A stretch of 64,000 nucleotides of DNA, from the NCBI RefSeq assembly GCF_054482525.1, contig NZ_CM137006.1, one strand, 5' to 3'. The notes beneath the pieces are model-generated. The model saw nothing but the letters and a program-made list of their open reading frames with translations. It was not told where the DNA came from and searched no databases. A program made the position numbers and the translations under genes. Shown one piece after another: positions 10,542 through 44,816 of the stretch (its first letter is position 1; each line of letters opens with the position of its first letter).

Positions 10542-10617
10542 TGGTGCCGATAATAGGAGTCGAACCTACGACCTTCGCATTACGAATGCGCTGCTCTACC
10601 AACTGAGCTATATCGGC
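10542..10617 (-). tRNA. thrW: tRNA-Thr (anticodon CGU), thrW-like
   Basis: Reverse complement reads GCCGATATAGCTCAGTTGGTAGAGCAGCGCATTCGTAATGCGAAGGTCGTAGGTTCGACTCCTATTATCGGCACCA, 76 nt with CCA end and anticodon loop TTCGTAA. Confidence 0.9.
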
Positions 10618-30855: not shown

Positions 30856-31626
30856 GTGCCTGGTTTGAAGATTACGCTTTTGCAGCAACCACTGGTGTGG
30901 ATGGATGGTCCTGCCAACCTGCGCCATTTTGATCGTCAACTGGAAGGTATTACCGGACGCGATGTGATCGTTCTACCGGAGATGTTTACCAGCGGCTTTG
31001 CCATGGAAGCGGCAGCTTCGTCGCTAGCACAAGATGACGTAGTGAACTGGATGACAGCCAAAGCGCAGCAGTGCAATGCGCTGATTGCAGGCAGTGTTGC
31101 ATTACAAACGGAGTCTGGTTCGGTTAACCGCTTTTTGCTGGTTGAGCCGGGCGGCACGGTACATTTTTATGATAAGCGTCATCTGTTCCGCATGGCAGAT
31201 GAGCATCTGCATTATAAAGCGGGCAATGAGCGAGTGATTGTGGAATGGCGCGGCTGGCGTATTTTACCGCTGGTGTGCTACGACTTACGTTTTCCGGTGT
31301 GGTCGCGCAATCTCAACGATTATGACCTCGCCATCTACGTTGCCAACTGGCCTGCCCCGCGCTCTCTGCACTGGCAGGCATTGCTGACGGCCCGTGCGAT
31401 TGAGAATCAGGCGTATGTGGCGGGATGTAATCGCGTCGGCAGCGATGGCAACGGCTGCCATTATCGCGGTGACAGCCGGGTGATTAATCCACAAGGTGAG
31501 ATTATCGCTACTGCCGACGCTCATCAGGCAACGCGCATTGATGCGGAACTGTCGATGATGGCGTTGCGGGAGTATAGAGAAAAGTTTCCGGCATGGCGGG
31601 ATGCGGATGAGTTTAGGTTGTGGTGA
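30856..31626 (+). CDS. yafV: C-N hydrolase (omega-amidase) YafV
   Basis: ORF 30847..31626; YafV-like sequence begins at the GTG at 30856 (PGLKITLLQQPLVWMDGPANL...). Confidence 0.9.
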   Translation: MPGLKITLLQQPLVWMDGPANLRHFDRQLEGITGRDVIVLPEMFTSGFAMEAAASSLAQDDVVNWMTAKAQQCNALIAGSVALQTESGSVNRFLLVEPGGTVHFYDKRHLFRMADEHLHYKAGNERVIVEWRGWRILPLVCYDLRFPVWSRNLNDYDLAIYVANWPAPRSLHWQALLTARAIENQAYVAGCNRVGSDGNGCHYRGDSRVINPQGEIIATADAHQATRIDAELSMMALREYREKFPAWRDADEFRLW

Positions 31627-31664
31627 GTGGGTGTTGTGTTTAGGGGCGGGGTAAGACTACGGGT

Positions 31665-31721
31665 CAGGGCAAGATTACGAAAGCCCGCTCCCCGCAAGGA
31701 CTGATGCCAGGTAGTTTCTGT
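31665..31721. repeat. ~57-bp direct repeat copy 1 (duplicate of the H-repeat element 3' end)
   Basis: cagggcaagattacgaaagcccgctccccgcaaggactgatgccaggtagtttctgt recurs with 2 mismatches at 31798..31855. Confidence 0.7.
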
Positions 31722-31797
31722 GAGTCTGTTTACCATTCTGTGTAAATGCCTTTCTCAGAAGTGACCGTCAAGGCGGTCACCGAATTCGATAATAAAG

Positions 31798-31855
31798 CCA
31801 GGGCAAGATTACGAAAGCCCGCTCCCTGCAAGGACTGACGCCAGGTAGTTTCTGT
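31798..31855. repeat. ~57-bp direct repeat copy 2, overlapping the 3' end of the H-repeat transposase gene
   Basis: Near-identical to 31665..31721; overlaps the stop codon region of the ORF at 31809..32945. Confidence 0.7.
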
Positions 31856-32945
31856 CCATGGCTGCTTTTCGCATCTTACGTCTTAACCCTGCCTTGAATA
31901 CATTATCATTCGTTAAAATATTAATAGCGATGTGCCGTATCCCTGAAAATAATTCTGCGGCGTTTCCTCTTCTTATTTTGCAGTCGTCTTCATTCATTAC
32001 CACGTCCAGACGCCAGTGCAGCTTATTCTCCACGTGCCAGTGATTTCGGATCGCTGTGGCGAACTTTTCTGCGGTTAAATCAGCAGAACTGATATAATAT
32101 CTGACCGTCATTTCTGGCTCTTTCTTTTGTTCTGCTATTATTGACCGAAAGGAGACTGCCACGCATAATTTCTTCAGTCCTTTCCATTCAAACGTGAAAT
32201 CAATAAGTTCATCAGGGACATCGCAAACAATATGAAGACGGATTTCTTCTCTGCCGTGACTCTTTTCACTTATTTCGTAACTGTCATGCTCTGGATTATT
32301 TAATTCTTTCAGCGGAAATTTTCCATCAAAGGCTTTATTTAGTCGTCCCTGATTTCCTTTTACAGCGAATAAATAATCACCGCCCTGTTTTTGCATCTTC
32401 TCTGCAATATCTTTCTGGCAACCCATCGCATCAGTTGTGATGATTTTTCCTTTAATATCCAGCATCTTAAGAAGTTCAGGGATAGCTGTGATCTCATTGG
32501 ATTTCTCATCCGTCCTGATCTGTCCGATAACCAGACTGTGCATTGTTGAGAACGCACTAATGACATGAATCGCTCCCTTGCGGCGACTCTTGTCATAAGA
32601 ATGCCGGAGTGTTTTTCCATCAATTGCGATGACGTCTTTATCATCTGAAGTATGGCAATCTCGCATCCAGTTAATAAAGCACTCGTGAAATTTTGCAGGA
32701 CTGATACAGGATACAACTCTGGCGATGGTATCGTGAACAGGAATACCATTTTCAAAATCACCGTATTGTTTTAAAAAATCGAGATGTGTTTCCCCAAAAT
32801 CCTCTATATCTTCCCAACCTTCCGCACCCGAAATAACGGCACAAATAGTCAACAGTAGAATATCCGATAATTTATTTTCCACTTTCCAGCCTTGTCTGTA
32901 ATCGGGGATAATAGAAATATGTTCCATCAATTTTTTAAGCTCCAT
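31809..32945 (-). CDS. H-repeat-associated protein (ISAs1-family transposase, YhhI/YdcC-like)
   Basis: 378 aa translation resembles E. coli H-repeat proteins that accompany Rhs elements ([32 protein letters not shown]...). Confidence 0.8.
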
Positions 32946-33225
32946 TTTGTTCTCCTTAATTATGTAAGGAGTATTTGATCATGTATAAGCAATAAAAAAC
33001 AGCTTTAGGTAATGAGGAATATCTCAATTTTTAAACATAAAATGCGAATTACTTAGTACAAAAAAGCAGCGTTACGTGATCTTTCCCTGGTCCCTGTCCC
33101 GGATTGTAGTACCGGTGCCAGTTGTAGTGCAGTTCGGATTCGTCGTCATACTGCTAGCCCGGATGGCGGAGCAGTTGCTCTAGTCACTCAGAATATTGTA
33201 ATAGTGATAGAGTGCAGTGCCGGTT

Positions 33226-33624
33226 TCAATATCCTAACGCTGGTCTTTTGCCTGTATTAACTGATTTAGCTGGTTTGCTACATATTAATGCCTTCAGATT
33301 TTCCCTTTCCTTGTCTGTGATACTGTCGCAAACCCTACTAGCCCATTCTACTTCACTCTTCTCCAGGCATTCTATTTTCTTATTGCTCATTGTTCTAATG
33401 TTTGGTGTTGCATCTCCATTTAATAACATCCATGTTTCATTTTTCTTCATAAAACATCTTCCATTATGTTCAAAGATATTAGGTGTGAATATATTATCAG
33501 AATCCCATGTTACGACTTGCTCGAGGGCTATATTATCTTGATAGTCCATGCCAGCATTATAATAATCACAAGATATAATTATCATGGAAATAATTATCAC
33601 TAATATATTCCCAAGCATTTCCAT
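33226..33624 (-). CDS. hypothetical small protein with N-terminal hydrophobic signal/lipobox-like segment; candidate Rhs immunity protein
   Basis: 132 aa AT-rich ORF immediately downstream of the Rhs gene; N-terminus ILVIIISMIIISC. Confidence 0.35.
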   Translation of the reverse strand: MEMLGNILVIIISMIIISCDYYNAGMDYQDNIALEQVVTWDSDNIFTPNIFEHNGRCFMKKNETWMLLNGDATPNIRTMSNKKIECLEKSEVEWASRVCDSITDKERENLKALICSKPAKSVNTGKRPALGY

Positions 33625-33906: not shown

Positions 33907-36900
33907 TCAAATCCAGGTATCTCTGCGGGGTTGCATCTTTTTAAAATAATCAGAGACAGAGGCTCCCATCTCATCCCCAGTTCCCGAACTCATTAATCCA
34001 TATCGATTTGCCGCCGCAGCATGCCCAAAAGGATTATCAGGAACGGGGCCGTTACCTATTATCATAGTACTAAGCCCTAATGGATCAACGTGTTGCACTG
34101 GATTCAGCGGATATTGGTACAGATTCCATCCCCCCTTCAGCCCAATCGGGTCCTGGATGATATACCGCCCCTGCAACGGATCGTAGTACCGGTGACGGTT
34201 ATAATACAGCCCCGACTCCTCATCGTGTTGCTGCCCTGGCAGACGGTACGGCTGGTGCAGGTGATGCGGGTTTTCCTCATTCAGCAGGTTGCCCCATTCA
34301 TCATACTCCCCGCTCCACGCCGTATTTCCGTCTTCGCTGATGAGCGCCAGCGGCAGGCCCCGGTGGTCGCAGTGGTAAAGATGAACTTTTCGCGCCGGTG
34401 TGTATTCCGGCTCCACCTGTTTTTCCAGTTGCTCCACCGTCAGCCCGCACTGCGCAAGCCACGCCCGGCTTTCACTGCTCACGCGGTCTGCCCGGATTTC
34501 CCCCTCCAGCCTGTCCAGCAGCCGCACCAGTTCAGCCGGGAACACCACGCCGTGTCCGTCCTCGCTCCCTTCCTGCTGGAGCTTCTCCGCCAGGCTCCGC
34601 CGCTGCGTTTTCTCCCGCTCGCCGTTGTCTGTTTCGATGCGGATGAGCGGTGTGAAGCTTCCCGGCTCGTATACCGTCTGGATACGTGTGCTGTCGGTCT
34701 GCACCGTCGTCAGGTGGTCGCCGTCCCAGCCGTACCACGTCACCTCCGGTTTACGCGACAGCGACATCCACCCCGTCAGGTCACGCTCCCGCCGCCATAC
34801 CCGTTTCGCCATTCGCCGTCCCAGCGGGTCGTAGAGGTAGCGGCTCTCGACCAGTGGCTCTCCATGCTGTATCCGCGTGTAGAACACCAGGCGGTGCTGG
34901 CTGTCGTAGTGGTGGGTCCGCTCGTCGTCCGTCCGTATCACACCCGCCGGGATGCGGTCCGTCTTCTCCGTCAGCCTGCCGTATTCATCGTGGCGGTAGA
35001 CATAGTGCGCATCCTCCGCGATGCGGTTATCCGGCCACACTGTGAGTGTACTGTCCGGGTGCAGCTCCGGGTCCGGCAGCCGGTTGCCCGCCGGGTCCGT
35101 GGCATACGGGATGCGGATGTCCAGGTCCGGTGCGAGGGTGCGCACGCTCTCCAGCCTGCCCGTGGCGCTGTAGCCGTATTCCCGCGTCTGTCGCGGGCCG
35201 CTGATGCGCACCAGGTCGCCGTTGTCATTCCACCCGTAGTCACGGTCATACACCAGGCTGTTCAGGTGCTGACTCTGTAACTGACCTGCGGGGGTGTATG
35301 TGCTGGTCAGTTCATATGCGGAATTACTGCCTGCCATGCTGCCGAAGCTGCGCACCGTCTCACGGTGCAGCCTGTCCCGCGTATACTCGACCAGCGGCGT
35401 CCCGCCCAGCTTCATTCCCGCCAGGTAACCGCTGCCATACGTCAGCCACTCCACCGGCGGCAGGCTGTCCGGCGTGACGCGGTTTGCCAGCCCCTGTTCG
35501 TTGTATGCCTGTTTCGTCTCATGCTGCCACAGCAGTTCCCCCGTCTCCGGGTTCTTCACCGTCTGGCGCTCACTGGTCAGACGGCCTTTATCGTCATAGC
35601 CGTAGTGGACCGCCACACGGTGGCCTTCACTGGTATGGCTGAGGGTGGTTAACCACCCGTGCTCATCCTACTGCCACTGCTCTGCCGGGTCGCCGTTCAC
35701 CGTCCGGTGCGTGATGCGGTCTGCTTCATCGTAGTACCACTGCGTGACCTGCCCCTCATCCTCGCTGCGGATGAGCTGCCCTGTGGCGCTGTACCGGTAA
35801 CGCTGTGTCCTGCCATCAAAGCCGCGCTGCTCCGTCAGGCGGTCCAGCACATCGTAGGTAAATTCACTCCGGCTGCCGTTCTCGTTGGTCAGCACGGTGA
35901 TGCGCCCGGCAGCGTCATACCCCATGCTGCGCGTCAGCCCGCCTTCCGTCACACTCACCGGACGCCCGCGTTTATCATATGCGATGGTGCTGCGTTTACC
36001 GTCCGGTGATATCGTTGCTGTCAGGTCGCCTGCGGCACTGTACTCATAACGGGTTTCACGCCCCTGCGCATCCTTCTGCCCTGTCAGCCTGCCGCGGCTG
36101 TCATAGAGACTATAAATACTGAGACCTTCCTCCCGGTGAACGGCGATTTGTTGACCGTACCGGTCATACTCATACCGCGTCATGTACCCCGAGCAGTCCG
36201 TGAAGGTCCGAAGCTGACCGTACCGGTTTCGCGTTATTCTCCGCGTTACCCCGATTCCGTCTTCCACCGCGCCGGGCAGGCTACTGCGGGGGGGAGTCAT
36301 AAAACCAGCGCGTAATGTTACCGTTGCGCGAGGTCTCTTCTGCCAGTCGGCCCTGACGGTCATATTTCCGGCTGCTGCGTAAACCATCCGGATATGTCAC
36401 TGAAGTCAGTTGCAACTGGCTGTTATAGCCATACCGCACCGTCCTGCCGTCCGGCAGTATCACTGAAGTCAGCTTTCCAGACGCCATATGCAGCCGGTAC
36501 ACCGTCCGCCGCCCCGCCGCATCCGTCTGCGCCTTCAGCCTCCCCGCCTCATCATACTCGCTGCGGGTGATGCTCCCGTCCGCATGCTCCTTCTTCACCA
36601 CCCGCTTCAGGCCACCTTCGCCTTCCGTGTACAGCACCTCCCGCCGGTTCAGGCTGTCCGTGATGGTCACACGGTCCTGCCCGTACTCAAAGCGGTAGTC
36701 AAGTCCCTCCGGGTTGACCTGCTCCGTCACCCGACCGGTATCATCATACCGGTAGCGGCTCTCCGGCCTCCCTGCATAATGGTGCGCCACCATCCGCCCG
36801 GCGTGCTCCGCATCATAAGTAAACCCGCGCACCTGCGTCCCGCTGCGGTCATACACCGCCCGCAGTTCTCCGCTGGCCGTGTACGTGTAGCGCGCCAGCG

Positions 36901-37855
36901 GCGCAGTCGGCTGTTCATCCGGGTATGCCGGGTCGTGTGTCAGCCACACCGCCTCCAGCCGGATACCGTTATCGGCACCGTATTCTGTACCGGCGGGCAG
37001 CGTGTCGGGGAAAGCTGAAGAAGAGGAAGCAGAACGGGGACCTGCAGGGGAAGATAAAGACGTGGCGCGCTGTTTACGGAAGGCTTCCGCCCGCTGCGCC
37101 TGCGTGGTCAGCGCCAGGTGAAAACGACGGCCCGCGCCGTCCGTCACCCTGGTGATTTCGCCAGCCAGTTCGCCTGCGGCCTCGCGGTGGAAAGCCAGTG
37201 AAAGCCCGAAACCGTCCACCACGCCCGTCAGCACCCGGTATGCAGGCGGCTCCGGCGGCAGCACTTCGTCCGCCTCCGGCACCCGCTCCGGCCAGCCGAG
37301 TATCCACCACGGCCCCTGAAGGCTGTTTGCCGCCAGGTACACATGCGGACTCAGGCGAACATCTTCCGGCAGCACCTGCCAGAGCGCGCTTAGCGGCTGC
37401 GAACTGTGCTGCTCCGCCACCCCGCCCCGCGCCAGCCAGAACGACTCACTGCGGCTGTAACTTATCTCGCCGGGAAACAGGGGTTCAAAGTGAATACTCC
37501 TGCCGCCACTGTCGTTGAGTATCAGGCCTTCATCGCGTATCTGTAAGCGGATATCGAAGGGGGCTTTCCAGCCGGGACCAAACACCCCCACCGGCGCGGG
37601 TGTCCTGGTTCGGTAGCTGCTGTAAGCGCGAGAAAGAATAAACGGCAGCGGGCCGGGCAGCGCAAGGTCCGTCTCGCCCGGCAGCACCTTCGCACCCAGT
37701 AGCGGGTTCACCGGGTTAGCATAGGTAATCCCTCCCGGACACACCGAGCAGGCCACTCCTGTCGGCGCACCTATCAGCCCCCCTGCTGAACCCTGCACAA
37801 TATCCAGTCCCTTGCGGGTCATGTCACCCTGCCGCGCCGCCGGTTTTCCGCTCAT
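33907..37855 (-). pseudogene. rhs: PAAR-Rhs family protein (T6SS effector type), disrupted by a +1 frameshift and an in-frame TAG
   Basis: Three consecutive ORFs (36281..37855, 35668..36387, 33907..35616) tile one Rhs protein: PAAR-like N-terminus, YD repeats, DPIGL core end. Frameshift at the G7 run 36288..36294; in-frame TAG at 35665..35667. Confidence 0.8.
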
Positions 37856-38393: not shown

Positions 38394-41300
38394 CTATTCT
38401 GGCGTGCCATTTATTGTTGCCGTCTGCGTTGGTGTATTCACACGATAATACACTCCATTATATGCTGTTCTGGTACACTCACCTAAAGTTTTCGCCGCAT
38501 GCTGTTCAATTAAAGTGATAACTCTCGCCTCTTCTTTATTTTTATATTGTTCATCCGCACGTCTCACAAGCCCCATATAACCATCCTTATCAATAAGATA
38601 TAAGTGCGCATGAGCAAACTCATGCCCCAAACCTAATGCAGGTGATTGTGATTTCGATTTTAAATCAGTTGAACAAAATAAAGCCGCCTTACCATTCCAA
38701 TATATAGTCATTTTATCCGGGTCAAATCTAACGTCGGTTTCATCAATATACTCTATCTTTATGGTTTCTTCAGAGCTTGATAAAAAATCTATAGCTTCTT
38801 TCATTCGTGAATCTTGTTTTAAATACTCAACAGCCTGATTAAAATCACTTGGATCACCGTTAACATGGAATTTTAAACCCAAAGAATCTATAAACCGAAC
38901 AGGGTTTAATGGATATTTATACAGATTCCATTCACCTCTTAGCCCGATTGGATCCTGGGTGATATACCTTCCCTGTAGCGGGTCATAGTACCGGTTCCGG
39001 TTATAGTACAGTCCTGATTCCTCATCATGCTGCTGCCCCGGCAGACGGTATGGCTGGTGCAGGTGATGCGGGTTCTCCTCATTCAGCAGGTTGCCTCATT
39101 CATCATATTCCCCACGCCATTCCGTTGCTCCTTCGGTACTGATGAGCGCCAGCGGCAGCCCCCGGTGGTCACAGTGATAAAGATGAATTTTTCGCTCAGG
39201 TAAATAAACCGGCTCTATCTGTGCCGCCAGCCGCTCCACCGTCAGCCCGCACTGTGCCAGCCACTGGCGGCTTTCACTGCTCACGCGGTCTGCCCGGATT
39301 TCCCCCTCCAGCCTGTCCAGCATCCTCACAAGTTCTGCCGGGAACACCACACCGTGGCCGTCCTCGCTTCCTTCCTGCTGCAACTTCTCCGCCAGGCTCC
39401 GCCGCTGCGTTTTCTCCCGCTCGCCGTTGTCTGTTTCGATGCGGATGAGTGGTGTGAAGCTTCCCGGCTCGTATACCGTCTGGATCCGGCTCTGTTGTGT
39501 CTGTATCGTCGTCAGCCTGTCACCGTCCCAGCCGTACCACGTTACCTCCGGTTTACGCGACAGCGACATCCACCCCGTCAGGTCACGTACCCGCCGCCAC
39601 ACCCGTTTACCCGTCCGGCGGCCCAGCGGGTCGTAGAGGTAGCGGCTCTCCACCTGCGGCTCGCCATGCTGTATCCGCGTGTAGAACACCAGGCGGTGCT
39701 GGCTGTCGTAGTGGTGGGTCCGCTCGTCGTCCGTCCGTATCACACCCGCCGGGATGCGGTCCGTCTTCTCCGTCAGCCTGCCGTATTCATCGTGGCGGTA
39801 GACATAGTGCGCATCCTCCGCGATGCGGTTATCCGGCCACACTGTGAGTGTACTGTCCGGGTGCAGCTCCGGGTCCGGCAGCCGGTTGCCCGCCGGGTCC
39901 GTGGCATACGGGATGCGGATGTCCAGGTCCGGTGCGAGGGTGCGCACGCTCTCCAGCCTGCCCGTGGCGCTGTAGCCGTATTCCCGCGTCTGTCGCGGGC
40001 CGCTGATGCGCACCAGGTCGCCGTTGTCATTCCACCCGTAGTCACGGTCATACACCAGGCTGTTCAGGTGCTGACTCTGTAACTGACCTGCGGGGGTGTA
40101 TGTGCTGGTCAGTTCATATGCGGAATTACTGCCTGCCATGCTGCCGAAGCTGCGCACCGTCTCACGGTGCAGCCTGTCCCGCGTATACTCGACCAGCGGC
40201 GTCCCGCCCAGCTTCATTCCCGCCAGGTAACCGCTGCCATACGTCAGCCACTCCACCGGCGGCAGGCTGTCCGGCGTGACGCGGTTTGCCAGCCCCTGCT
40301 CGTTGTATGCGTGTTTCGTCTCATGCTGCCACAGCAGTTCCCCCGTCTCCGGGTTCTCCACCGTCTGGCGTTCGCCGGTCAGGCGGCCTTTATCGTCATA
40401 GCCATAGTGGACGGCAACACGGTGGCCTTCGCTCAGGTGGCTGATTTCTCTCAGCCAGCCGTGGCCATCATACTGCCACTGCTCTGCCGGTTCGCCGTTC
40501 ACCGTGCGGTGAGTGATACGGTCCGATTCATCGTAGTACCAGAGGATGACAAGCCCCTCATCTTCACTCTGCGTGAGTTTTCCGGTCAGGTCATAATGAT
40601 AACGTTGCGTCCGCCCGTCAAAGCCGCCCTGCTGTACCAGGCGGTCCAGCGCATCGTAGCTGAAGTCGCTGTGACTGCCGTTCTCGTTGGTCAGGCTGAT
40701 GACACGTCCTGCCGCGTCATACTCCATACTGCGCGTCAGCCCGCCCTGCGTGGTGCTGACCGCCTTTCCCCACGCATCGTACTGTGTCTCGCTCCGGTTG
40801 CCGTCCGGGGTGATAACGGCAGTCAGGTCGCCTGCGGCGTTGTATTCATACCGCGTTTCACGGCCCTGTGCGTCTTTCACCGAGGTTAACCGGCCACGGT
40901 TGTCATAGCGGCGGTAAAGGCTGATGCCTTCCTCGCGGTGGACCGCCGTCATCTGGCCGAAGCGGTCATACTCATAGCGGGTCTGGTAGCCCGAGCAGTC
41001 GGTGAACGCCAGCAACTGACCGTAGCGGCTCCAGGTCATCTGCCGGGTGCTGCCCGTCGCATCTGTTGTCGTGGCCGGTAATTCACTGTGCGGATTATCA
41101 TAAGCATACCGGATGACGTCCCCACTGCGCGATGTCTCCGATACCAGCCTGTCCCGCTCATCATACGCCCGGCGGCTCTCCAGCCCGTCCGGGTACACCA
41201 CCGCCGTCACCAGGTTCCCGTCGTTATAGTAAAATTTCGTCTCCCGCCCGTCCGGCGTGGTGATGTCCGTGATGTCGCCTGACACCACATTCAGACCGTA

Positions 41301-42641
41301 CTCTGTCCGCCGTCCCGCCGCGTCCGTCTGCGCCGTAAGCCGCCCCACCGGGTCATACCCGCTGCGCGTGACGCTGCCGTCCGCCAGTTCTTTTTTCACC
41401 ACCCGCTTCAGCCCGGCCCCGCCTTCTGTATGCAGCACCTCACGCCGGTTCAGGCTGTCCGTGACGGTGATGCGGTCCTGCTCATACTGGTAGCGGTAAC
41501 TCAGGCCTGCCGGGTTCAGCTGCTCCACCACCCGCCCCGCATCGTCGTAGCGGTAGCGCATCTCCGGCCTTCCCGCGTAACGGTGCGCCACCATCCGGCC
41601 CGGGTGCTGCGCGTCATACGTGAAAGCGCGCACCTGCGTATTGCTGCGGTCATATACCGCCAGCAGTTCACCGGCTTCCGTATACGTGTACCGCACCAGT
41701 GGCGCACCGGGCAGGCTCTCCGGGTATGCCGGGTCGTGCATCAGCCACACCGCCGAAAGACGGATGCCCCTGTCGGGGCCGTATTCGGTACCGGGCAGTG
41801 TGTCGGGGAACGCTGAGGCTGAGAGAGGGCGGGAACGGTCAGAAGAAGATAGCGAAGAGGTGCGGGCCTCTTCCGCACGCTGCGCCTGCGTGGTCAGCAC
41901 CAGACGGAACTCCCGCCCGGCACCGTCCGTCACGCCGGTGATTTCCCCGGCCAGGTCACCGGCGGCCTCACGCCGGTACGTCAGCGTCCGCCCGAAGCGG
42001 TCCGCCAGCCCGGTAAGCACCCGGTACGGCGGCAGCGGCGCTGGCAGTACGTCCTCAGCACCCGGCACCCGCTCTGACCACCCCAGTATCCACCACGGTC
42101 CCTGTGCGCTGTTGGTCGCCAGGTAAAGATGCGGGCTTAACCGGATATCCGGCGGCAGCGACGCCCACAGCCGTGCCAGCGTGTGGCCGTCCGGCTGCGC
42201 TGCCTTACCACCGCGAACCAGCCACATTGACTCGCTGCGGCTGTACACCGCCTCCCCCGGCAGCAGCGGCTCAAGGTGAATGCTCCGCCCGCCGTTGTCG
42301 TTGAGTATCAGTCCGTCATCACGTAGCTGTAAGCGGATATCAGAAGGCGCTTTCCAGCCGGGGCCAAAAATCCCCACCGGCGCAGGCGTCTTCGTCCGGT
42401 AGCTGCTGTAGGTGCGGGAGAGAATGAACGGCAGCGGGCCGGGCAGCGCAAGGTCCGTCTCGCCGGGCAGCACCTTCGCCCCCAGCAGCGGATTTACCGG
42501 GTTGCCCGAAGTCATCCCGCCCGGACACACCGAGCACGCCACGCCGGTGGGCGCGCCAATTCTTACACCTGCCGAACCCTGGACAATGGGACCGCCATAC
42601 TGAGTCATATCTCCCTGACGCGCCGCTGGTTTTCCGCTCAT
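38394..42641 (-). pseudogene. rhs: PAAR-Rhs family T6SS effector with HExxH (zinc-metallopeptidase-like) C-terminal domain; frame interrupted by in-frame TGA
   Basis: Main ORF 39096..42641 (1181 aa) ends at a TGA where the paralogue has TGG (Trp); the same frame continues through the DPIGL core end into a C-terminal domain containing [10 protein letters not shown]. Confidence 0.75.
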
Positions 42642-42707: not shown

Positions 42708-44816
42708 TCAGTACTCTCTCATATCCGGCGTATCCTGCTTTTCATCAGGGGTCTTCGGTGGGGATTTCGAGGCTGCACAGTTCCAGTTAATCAACAGTGA
42801 GTCACCATTAACCTGCTCCTTACCCTGCAAATGAATTTTTGTGCCGTTGAGAAAAATTTGTCCGTCCTTAGTCAGCACCAGCCTTGCCTTACCACAGCAG
42901 AGTTCCAGATGCTCACCGCCGGAGTAAATCGCGGTCTGCCCGGTATCATCCTTTTTCGTTTTACCAACGGTGAAGGTAACGTTATTTCCGACTTTGACGT
43001 CATAACCCAGCCCGACCATCAACGATTTATGCAAACCGATCTGCGAGGACTGCATCAGGGCCACCGAGGTGTTCATAATGCCACCTACCGTCGTCTGATA
43101 CGCCACGCCCACAGTCAGCGCACGAACAAGTCCAATCGTTTCCACCTGAACAGAGCCCACTTTAATGATCTGGTTACTGCCCACCGTCTCTATCTGGTTA
43201 ACACCCACCGTCTGTATCTGATTGTTGGTAACCGCAATCATCTGATTGTTGCCAATGGTCTCAGCATGGTTGTTTATCACATCCGTGGTGCGGTTATTCA
43301 GCACCTCGGTGTTCATGTTCTTCTGCGCGTGGATGTAGACCTGTTCTTTCCCTGTCGCATCGTCAAACTTCAGTTCATTAAACCCGCTGCCCTTATAGGT
43401 TTTCGAACGAATGGTCATCTGCGTCTTTGTTCCCGGCAGGCTGCCGGGGGTGCGGTTTTCCTGGTGGTAGGTACGCCCCATAATAATCGGCTGGTCCGGA
43501 TCGCCGTTGAGGAAGTCCACAATGACTTCCTGACCCACACGCGGTATCGCCAGGTTGCCAAAGCCGGTGCCTGCCCACGCCTGTGCCACACGGATCCAGC
43601 ATGAACTGTCCTGGTTTGACGGGTTATAGCGGTCCCAGTTAAATTTCACCCGCACGCGGCCATGTTCATCACAGAAGATTTCTTCTCCTGCCGGTCCCGT
43701 CACGACGGCGCTCTGCGGGCCGTCCACCAGCGGTTTCAGCAACGGCTGTGGCCGCCATGTTCTGTCTGCCGGTATTACCGCAAAGTGGTTATTCAGCGTG
43801 GTACCTGAACCCCTGCGTCCCGGCACCGCCTGCGGCTGCTCGCCGTGCAGTTCACTTGCCACCACCTGCCATTCCCGGTTCAGGTTCGCCTGCGGATGCC
43901 CCGTCAGCGCAATTCGCCGTCCCGGCCATATCTCCGGCGAACGGCTTGTTCCGCGCGCCACTTCTGCGTTGTTTCGCCAGCCATCCATCTGCCAGCAGGC
44001 AAAGTTCTGCCCGTGGGCACCCTTGAAACGTCCGGGGTAGTCATACACTTCATACTGTGTGCGCTGGTAATCCTGGTGCTGGCCTTCCTGATCAAAACGC
44101 CCTGCCCAGCCGGGTCGTTTAAAGGTGTAGTCTTTGGTCACCACGGAAGATGGGCGGATTTGTGCGCTGTAGAGGAACTGGCTGATGCATAGGGTGCTCA
44201 CCTCGGTACGGGTGTTCGGATTCCAGGGGATCTCAAAGGACTCCGGCAGATAACGCACGGTGTCGCACAGGACCAGGCTCTGGTCGGTACTTTTTTGCGC
44301 GTGCTCCTCATAAAAGAAGATGCCTTCCTCCGCCGCCATCCGGCACAGGAAATCGTAATCGGTTTCGCCGTACTGGACACAAAACTCACGGGAAGGATGC
44401 GGCTCGCTGAACAGCGGACTCCACTCGGTCACCCCGTTTTCTTTCAGGATCGTCGCGAGTATGCTTTCGATGTCCTCATTCTGGAAGATACGGAAGTTCT
44501 GGCGCAGCCCTGTGCGCCACAGCGGTGGGCACACCTTCATGCTGTACAGCATCTGGTTTTTGTCGTTCTCCCCCAGTTCAAACCAGGTCACCACACCTTT
44601 CACCCGGCGCTGTACGTCATCGCCCTGCCATACCGTCAGGTAGGCCATTTTGTCCAGCACCTGCGCAAATTCAAGGGAGAGAAACTGCTGGCTGACCAGA
44701 GAGAGATCGAGGGAAAAGAGCGAAGAGAGTGACTGGTTCAGATGAAAGGAGACCACCGCAAACGCGTCCGGTGGCAGGCCGTCCACTTCCAGCGTGAAAC
44801 GTAATCCGGTTGACAT
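42708..44816 (-). CDS. vgrG: type VI secretion spike protein VgrG (TssI)
   Basis: 702 aa with VgrG-type gp27/gp5-like layout; immediately upstream of the Rhs gene. Confidence 0.9.
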   Translation of the reverse strand: MSTGLRFTLEVDGLPPDAFAVVSFHLNQSLSSLFSLDLSLVSQQFLSLEFAQVLDKMAYLTVWQGDDVQRRVKGVVTWFELGENDKNQMLYSMKVCPPLWRTGLRQNFRIFQNEDIESILATILKENGVTEWSPLFSEPHPSREFCVQYGETDYDFLCRMAAEEGIFFYEEHAQKSTDQSLVLCDTVRYLPESFEIPWNPNTRTEVSTLCISQFLYSAQIRPSSVVTKDYTFKRPGWAGRFDQEGQHQDYQRTQYEVYDYPGRFKGAHGQNFACWQMDGWRNNAEVARGTSRSPEIWPGRRIALTGHPQANLNREWQVVASELHGEQPQAVPGRRGSGTTLNNHFAVIPADRTWRPQPLLKPLVDGPQSAVVTGPAGEEIFCDEHGRVRVKFNWDRYNPSNQDSSCWIRVAQAWAGTGFGNLAIPRVGQEVIVDFLNGDPDQPIIMGRTYHQENRTPGSLPGTKTQMTIRSKTYKGSGFNELKFDDATGKEQVYIHAQKNMNTEVLNNRTTDVINNHAETIGNNQMIAVTNNQIQTVGVNQIETVGSNQIIKVGSVQVETIGLVRALTVGVAYQTTVGGIMNTSVALMQSSQIGLHKSLMVGLGYDVKVGNNVTFTVGKTKKDDTGQTAIYSGGEHLELCCGKARLVLTKDGQIFLNGTKIHLQGKEQVNGDSLLINWNCAASKSPPKTPDEKQDTPDMREY

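Follow-up and report, generated by a model that had tools for sequence, protein, structure and literature searches.

Insertion-sequence remnants probably stacked by nested insertion at the yafV-side end of the aspV T6SS/Rhs island of Escherichia coli

The window analysed here (the whole stretch of 64,000 nt) is part of an E. coli chromosome, and the 1,701 nt around the repeat described below share 99.9% identity with strain PCN033. The genes are, in this order, fadE (plus strand), ivy (minus strand), yafV (plus strand, Table 1) and an ORF of 378 aa (minus strand, 31809-32945), which is followed by two small ORFs and then by Rhs genes and the genes encoding VgrG, Hcp, TssC and ClpV. This region is where the aspV-linked T6SS/Rhs island of E. 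coli ends on its yafV side. The aspV gene was absent from the 64 kb, where the sole tRNA gene was a tRNA-Thr, presumably thrW; we take aspV to be the tRNA gene of the opposite island end, beyond the window. Both a T6SS at aspV (PMC2808357) and an Rhs element within the b0215-b0221 interval (PMC3032704) have been described.

Table 1. Features at and around the yafV-side end of the island (positions in the window)
Feature	Position	Strand	Remarks
tRNA-Thr, anticodon CGT	10542-10617	-	Only tRNA gene in the window
yafV (2-oxoglutaramate amidase)	30856-31626	+	PCN033 RefSeq annotation; NF007757, 547 bits (NCBIfam)
Core/island breakpoint	31613-31614		Comparison with genomes where yafV adjoins aspV
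Island-side segment: last 4 codons and stop of yafV, ~22 nt more	31614-31648	+	Kept wherever the island is present
Vestige of older 'native' H-rpt right end, 13 nt, GGGTAAGACTACG	31649-31661	+	Matches H-rpt tip nt 3-15
GGT	31662-31664		Between the 13-nt vestige and copy 1
Repeat copy 1, orphan terminal 57 nt (IRR end) of ISEc1/H-rpt	31665-31721	-	Starts at tip CAGGG
IS1414-like (IS256-family) terminal 77-nt stump	31722-31798	-	72-75/77 nt identity to IS256-family ends
Palindrome GTGACCGTCAAGGCGGTCAC, 20 nt	31761-31780		Within last 13 codons of IS1414-like transposase
Intact ISEc1 (H-rpt, ISAs1 family), 1,291 bp	31799-33089	-	Terminal inverted repeats and transposase ORF
IRR of ISEc1	31799-31822		
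Repeat copy 2	31799-31855	-	Terminal 57 nt of intact ISEc1
IRL of ISEc1	33066-33089		

A direct repeat of 57 nt is present downstream of yafV, and exactly two copies of it (copy 1 and copy 2) were found by a repeat finder and by a mismatch-tolerant pattern search. The copies are identical at 55 of 57 positions (mismatches at 31693, C/T, and 31705, T/C), their limits are sharp at both sides, and the number of repeat matches expected by chance was 0.00 (100 dinucleotide-preserving shuffles). The initial annotation had reported a duplicated sequence of about 57 bp with its copies 133 bp apart. The duplication is real, with two copies found and none in the shuffles, and the close spacing stands, but the exact figure has to be corrected: the copies lie 134 nt apart from start to start, with 77 nt in between. 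Since the same junctions recur in 36 independent complete genomes, an assembly artefact was excluded.

The 57 nt of copy 2 form the end of an intact ISEc1, the classical H-repeat (H-rpt). The evidence for this comes from the CAGGG inverted repeats of the element, its ISAs1-family transposase and the coincidence of its span with that of the copies at ydcC and yhhI. The element is bounded by imperfect inverted repeats (31799 CAGGGCAAGATTACG... and, at the other end, the reverse complement of ...CGTGATCTTTCCCTG 33089), which agree at 18 of 24 positions and each have CAGGG as their first letters. The 378-aa ORF, whose TAA stop codon is located at 31809-31811, encodes an ISAs1-family transposase (NCBIfam NF033564, 412.8 bits with a cut-off of 70 bits, profile positions 1-314 of 314). 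The ISEc1 copies at the unrelated loci ydcC and yhhI cover exactly the same span with 95-97% identity and are annotated as 'ISAs1-like element ISEc1'. Of the 57 nt of copy 2, 10 nt are the non-coding tip and 47 nt are the end of the transposase gene with its stop codon, which confirms the overlap with the 3' end of the H-repeat transposase gene that had been proposed for the second copy. Neither a target-site duplication nor a direct repeat was detected around the intact ISEc1 (CGATAATAAAGC vs GTCCCTGTCCCG); later recombination could have erased an ISEc1 target duplication, and the left flank differs between alleles.

Copy 1 does not belong to the core DNA but is an orphaned IS tip. ISEc1 copies from other loci align to copy 1 as well as to copy 2, unrelated copies of ISEc1 (e.g. 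ydcC) terminate in the same sequence as the repeat, and copy 1 is missing both from the type I alleles described below and from the alleles with an empty site. The exact start of copy 1 at an IS tip and the identical sequence of other ISEc1 ends bear out the earlier suggestion that it is the remnant of another copy of the H-repeat. The opposite possibility, that copy 1 is a core sequence present in genomes devoid of the island, was contradicted by 757 genomes with neither the island nor an H-repeat at the yafV site, all of which also lack copy 1. The 13-nt vestige that precedes copy 1 exactly matches H-rpt tip nt 3-15 of the common type I allele (strain K_EC180), and in strain SCU-301 the same vestige stands before an uninterrupted ISEc1. 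Compared with the common allele, the window carries GGT and has lost AGAGTCAGGG. Taken together, the vestige, copy 1 and copy 2 are three nested H-rpt right ends within ~210 nt.

The 77-nt spacer between the two copies is the right-end stump of an IS1414-like element, as follows from its identity to the ends of such elements, its start at an IS tip and its identical transposase C-terminus. IS1414 is an IS256-family element that carries astA, the gene of EAST1. The stump is made up of 33 nt of the non-coding end plus 44 nt comprising the last 13 codons and the stop codon (31755-31757) of the transposase gene. Its identity to the ends of four IS256-family/IS1414 elements, including those at loci L006, L012 and L013, is given in Table 1, and the transposase of L006 belongs to the IS256 family (NF033543, 406 bits). 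The spacer also matches 2,035 plasmid records, under or beside genes annotated as IS256-family/IS1414 transposase, and many E. coli genome records; the RefSeq label over the spacer matches is 'IS256-like element IS1414 family transposase'. The plasmid locus L013 contains a 1,315-bp IS1414 with an 8-bp target duplication (TTCTGGAT) on both sides. The tip of this element, GAGCCTGT, aligns with GAGTCTGT at 31722, which places the start of the spacer at an IS tip, and the minus-strand translation of the spacer (FIIEFGDRLDGHF, followed by the stop codon) is the C-terminus of the L013 IS1414 transposase. The spacer is not a complete element, one end and 13 codons being what remains of it. The short palindrome noticed previously between the copies is present; it encodes G-D-R-L-D-G-H and lies in the part of the IS1414 transposase gene that codes for the C-terminus. 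IS1414 fragments decayed to many different lengths have been reported to be widespread in E. coli (PMC12585946); the inverted repeats and target sites of IS1414 and the locus analysed here are not described in that study.

A further question is whether the repeat fixes the island boundary just downstream of yafV, as the initial annotation had stated. Among 5,426 complete E. coli genomes, 757 have an empty site in which yafV lies 98 bp from the tRNA-Asp gene aspV and the island is lacking. Homology between the window and these genomes ends at ...GATGAGTT (31606-31613). This point precedes the yafV stop codon by 13 nt and copy 1 by 51 nt, and the matches of island-bearing genomes to an empty-site query stop at the same breakpoint. 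Beyond this point the window reads T-AGG-TTG-TGG-TGA (F-R-L-W-stop), whereas the empty allele reads C-ACA-TTT-CGT-TAG (F-T-F-R-stop). The final 13 nt of yafV, the last core gene before the island, are island-side sequence, and the island end supplies the last four codons, i.e. the C-terminus, of this gene. The rough position given for the boundary was therefore right, but the exact edge is located inside yafV; the repeat lies just inside the island and does not define its edge, which the earlier claim had misplaced by ~50 nt. The outermost H-rpt tip is found ~35 nt inside the island-side DNA.

Most island-bearing E. coli genomes match the window to ~31651, and the island-side segment together with an H-rpt tip is also present in E. 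albertii, E. whittamii, Escherichia sp. E1V33 and Escherichia sp. MOD1-EC7003. In a scan of genome contigs, aspV was found within 600 bp of yafV at 19 of 120 yafV loci, which belong to Leclercia, Kluyvera, Pseudocitrobacter, Silvania, Trabulsiella and others. Because the adjacency of yafV and aspV recurs in other genera, the empty arrangement looks ancestral. The yafV relatives of other genera also vary at their last codons.

Several alleles were distinguished at this site. In allele I, which is common and is represented by K-12 and K_EC180, yafV is followed by ...GGGGAGAGT and then by the H-rpt tip, which runs straight into a single 'native' H-rpt end. Allele V (SCU-301 and 2014C-3075) contains the 13-nt vestige, GGT and an uninterrupted intact ISEc1. 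In strain LHM10-1, 40 nt of H-rpt tip are followed by a full-length IS256-family element of 1,313 bp. Allele IV (strain 5283 and, in total, ~151 genomes, obtained as 187 minus 36) consists of the vestige, GGT, 23 nt of ISEc1 tip, a 389-nt IS1414 stump and ISEc1. Allele II, present in 33 genomes, contains the native 57-nt tip, the 77-nt stump and ISEc1, and allele III, which is that of the window and was found in PCN033, SCU-102 and 19KM1776, contains the vestige, GGT, the 57-nt end, the 77-nt stump and ISEc1. The architecture shared by types II and III (hereafter 57/77/IS) is present in 36 of the 5,426 genomes, once in each genome and nowhere else.

In the three allele III genomes, the 60 nt proximal to yafV are as in the alleles with the 389-bp stump, and the 57/77/IS junctions are as in the other 33 genomes; such a mosaic needs an extra recombination event. 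Every joint at the site is flush with an IS tip. Three allele classes differ in where the IS1414-type tip joins the H-rpt end, at nt 23, 40 or 57 and hence in steps of 17 nt; the joints between tip and H-rpt were located at L003 2266-2290, L012 3465-3510 and window 31700-31730. These steps could reflect independent insertions, nested adjacent deletions or a coincidence.

The order of the pieces inward from yafV is thus the 13-nt vestige, 57 nt of ISEc1, 77 nt of the IS1414-like element, and the intact ISEc1; the tip of the latter (copy 2) abuts the IS1414 stump flush at nt 77. Each piece was identified with its exact limits, and related alleles occupy the same site. We conclude, with a probability of about 0.88, that the repeat belongs to a stack of IS scars which originated by nested insertion at the yafV-side end of the aspV T6SS/Rhs island. 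Nothing indicates a function of its own for this stack.

The order of events we infer as follows. A complete ISEc1 would once have resided at the position of copy 1, and type V alleles show that a complete ISEc1 can occupy this position. An IS1414-like element would then have integrated in this ISEc1 at a distance of 57 nt from the tip; in LHM10-1 an IS256-family element has entered this same H-rpt end. Subsequently, a second ISEc1 in the same orientation would have been placed inside IS1414 by a transposase-type event, with its tip at nt 77. The remaining ~1.24 kb of IS1414 and the body of the old ISEc1 would have been lost; the simplest route would be homologous (RecA-type) recombination between both ISEc1 copies, which are in direct orientation. 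No intermediate with the junction between the 57-nt end and IS1414 and more than 77 nt of IS1414 was found in the 5,426 genomes, and hence we can only infer the last step. According to PMC3032704, transposition of H-rpt has not been observed experimentally, so that the flush ISEc1 junctions are the sole sign of a transposase-type event; flush ends argue for the action of a transposase and against template-driven repair.

A recombination breakpoint that would prove insertion plus recombination was sought by comparing the SNPs of six ISEc1 copies. A patch at IS nt 161-668 separates the window allele from the other 57/77/IS alleles. Between the ISEc1 of the window and that of type II (strain 1190), nt 1-160 are identical, 23 of the 24 differences are located in nt 161-668 (window ~31959-32466) and a single difference is found in nt 669-1291. 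The clustering of these differences suggests gene conversion from another H-rpt copy, and this conversion patch was not decisive for the breakpoint.

An alternative explanation is that the intact ISEc1 first lay beyond IS1414, and that adjacent deletions mediated by ISEc1 from its IRR tip ate into IS1414, leaving 389 nt in one lineage and 77 nt in another. This would proceed by intramolecular transposition and would require neither a separate insertion nor homologous recombination. The 77-nt and the 389-nt stumps both end flush at the ISEc1 tip, which is the signature of such deletions, and the joint of the H-rpt stump varies (nt 23, 40 and 57) while being always flush to the IS1414 tip, a pattern expected from adjacent deletions. 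However, the ancestor required, with two ISEc1 ends flanking IS1414, was not seen in the 5,426 genomes, and 4 of the first 16 nt are different between the 77- and 389-nt stumps, suggesting that they are not simple derivatives of one IS1414 copy. We consider this explanation rather unlikely, and the route of insertion plus recombination is favoured over it. By either kind of event, insertion or adjacent deletion, the ISEc1 tips that lie flush at nt 77 and 389 of IS1414 and the three nested right ends may be footprints of real ISEc1/H-rpt transposase activity, acting repeatedly at the same spot, a tentative proposal to which we give slightly less than even odds.

The remaining explanations are far less credible. 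Two direct repeats with a short spacer resemble a local tandem duplication of a 134-bp unit, produced inside one H-repeat end by replication slippage or unequal crossing-over, but the 77 nt are foreign to ISEc1, whose canonical form has 1,291 bp and a single tip, and duplication of local sequence cannot create an IS256-family spacer, which makes this origin highly improbable. Equally hard to sustain is the idea that the 77 nt are a small non-autonomous, MITE-like element whose insertion duplicated 57 nt of target. A short piece that bears a palindrome and lies between direct repeats is superficially like an insertion with target duplication; however, the piece holds only one IS end and 44 nt of the 3' end of a transposase gene, the target duplication of IS1414 is 8 bp, versions of 389 nt and of full length (1,313 bp) are present in the same H-rpt end of other strains, and the 57/77/IS arrangement occurs once per genome and never elsewhere.

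Copy 1 and the palindrome might also be taken for a core intergenic or regulatory sequence of yafV, such as a terminator, given that they are located 39-155 nt downstream of its stop codon and that the palindrome can fold into a hairpin whose stem has 7-8 bp. This can be practically discarded, since most yafV-bearing genomes lack both, among them the 757 with an empty site and those with the common type I alleles (K-12 included), one arm of the palindrome is variable among IS copies, and neither terminator- nor promoter-like sites were detected by a scan of 31500-32000, nor any Rfam match in 31300-33300 at a permissive threshold. The palindrome was rejected as a terminator because it is transposase coding sequence and no terminator-like site was detected, and a regulatory hairpin was rejected because the fold of the 77-nt spacer was no better than that of shuffled sequences (z = -1.48).

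All parts of the nested-insertion structure come from described families, namely ISEc1/H-rpt (ISAs1), IS1414 (IS256) and the aspV island. Features of this kind are already known, and IS copies that are nested or truncated are common. Like the ISEc1/H-rpt copies ydcC and yhhI of K-12, the element of the window has 1,291 bp, CAGGG inverted repeats and a 378-aa transposase, and it is likewise placed downstream of an Rhs core and its tips. K-12 contains a truncated H-rpt, 'yafF', beside yafV at the same site. Unlike in other ISEc1/H-rpt copies, here the resident tip is severed by another IS with a second complete tip behind it, and two (arguably three) right ends follow in direct order within 210 nt. 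The spacer shares with IS1414 the right end, the start of the tip and 13 C-terminal residues, whereas it differs in having only 77 nt and in being devoid of astA, of a second end and of a target duplication. The aspV T6SS/Rhs island is situated between aspV and yafV, its genes for Rhs, VgrG, Hcp, TssC and ClpV being contained in the window, and an empty aspV-yafV site exists, as for tRNA-associated islands; here, the yafV-side edge is not at an IS repeat but 13 nt inside the yafV frame.

The value of these results lies mainly in annotation, i.e. in the limits of the intact ISEc1, the orphan tip and the IS1414 stump that RefSeq leaves unannotated, and in a corrected yafV-side edge for the aspV T6SS/Rhs island, now placed within the yafV reading frame. 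The allele series, with its 57/77/IS scar in 36 of 5,426 genomes, could serve as a lineage marker. The site also gives an indirect sign of H-rpt ends moved by transposase-type events, which is mildly interesting in view of the previous report on H-rpt (PMC3032704).

With regard to the other side of the element, the Rhs core gene that adjoins ISEc1 (33907-37855, minus strand) is broken into at least two ORFs, and its counterpart in PCN033 is annotated by RefSeq as frameshifted. A second, longer Rhs ORF (39096-42641) is located downstream of vgrG (42708-44816). The DNA at the IRL side of ISEc1 (from 33090 onward; compared at L002, L003, L015 and L137) is wholly different between allele types, the differences being other small ORFs and other Rhs tips. 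This indicates that the H-rpt is situated at the join of a conserved yafV-side stub and a variable Rhs-tip region.
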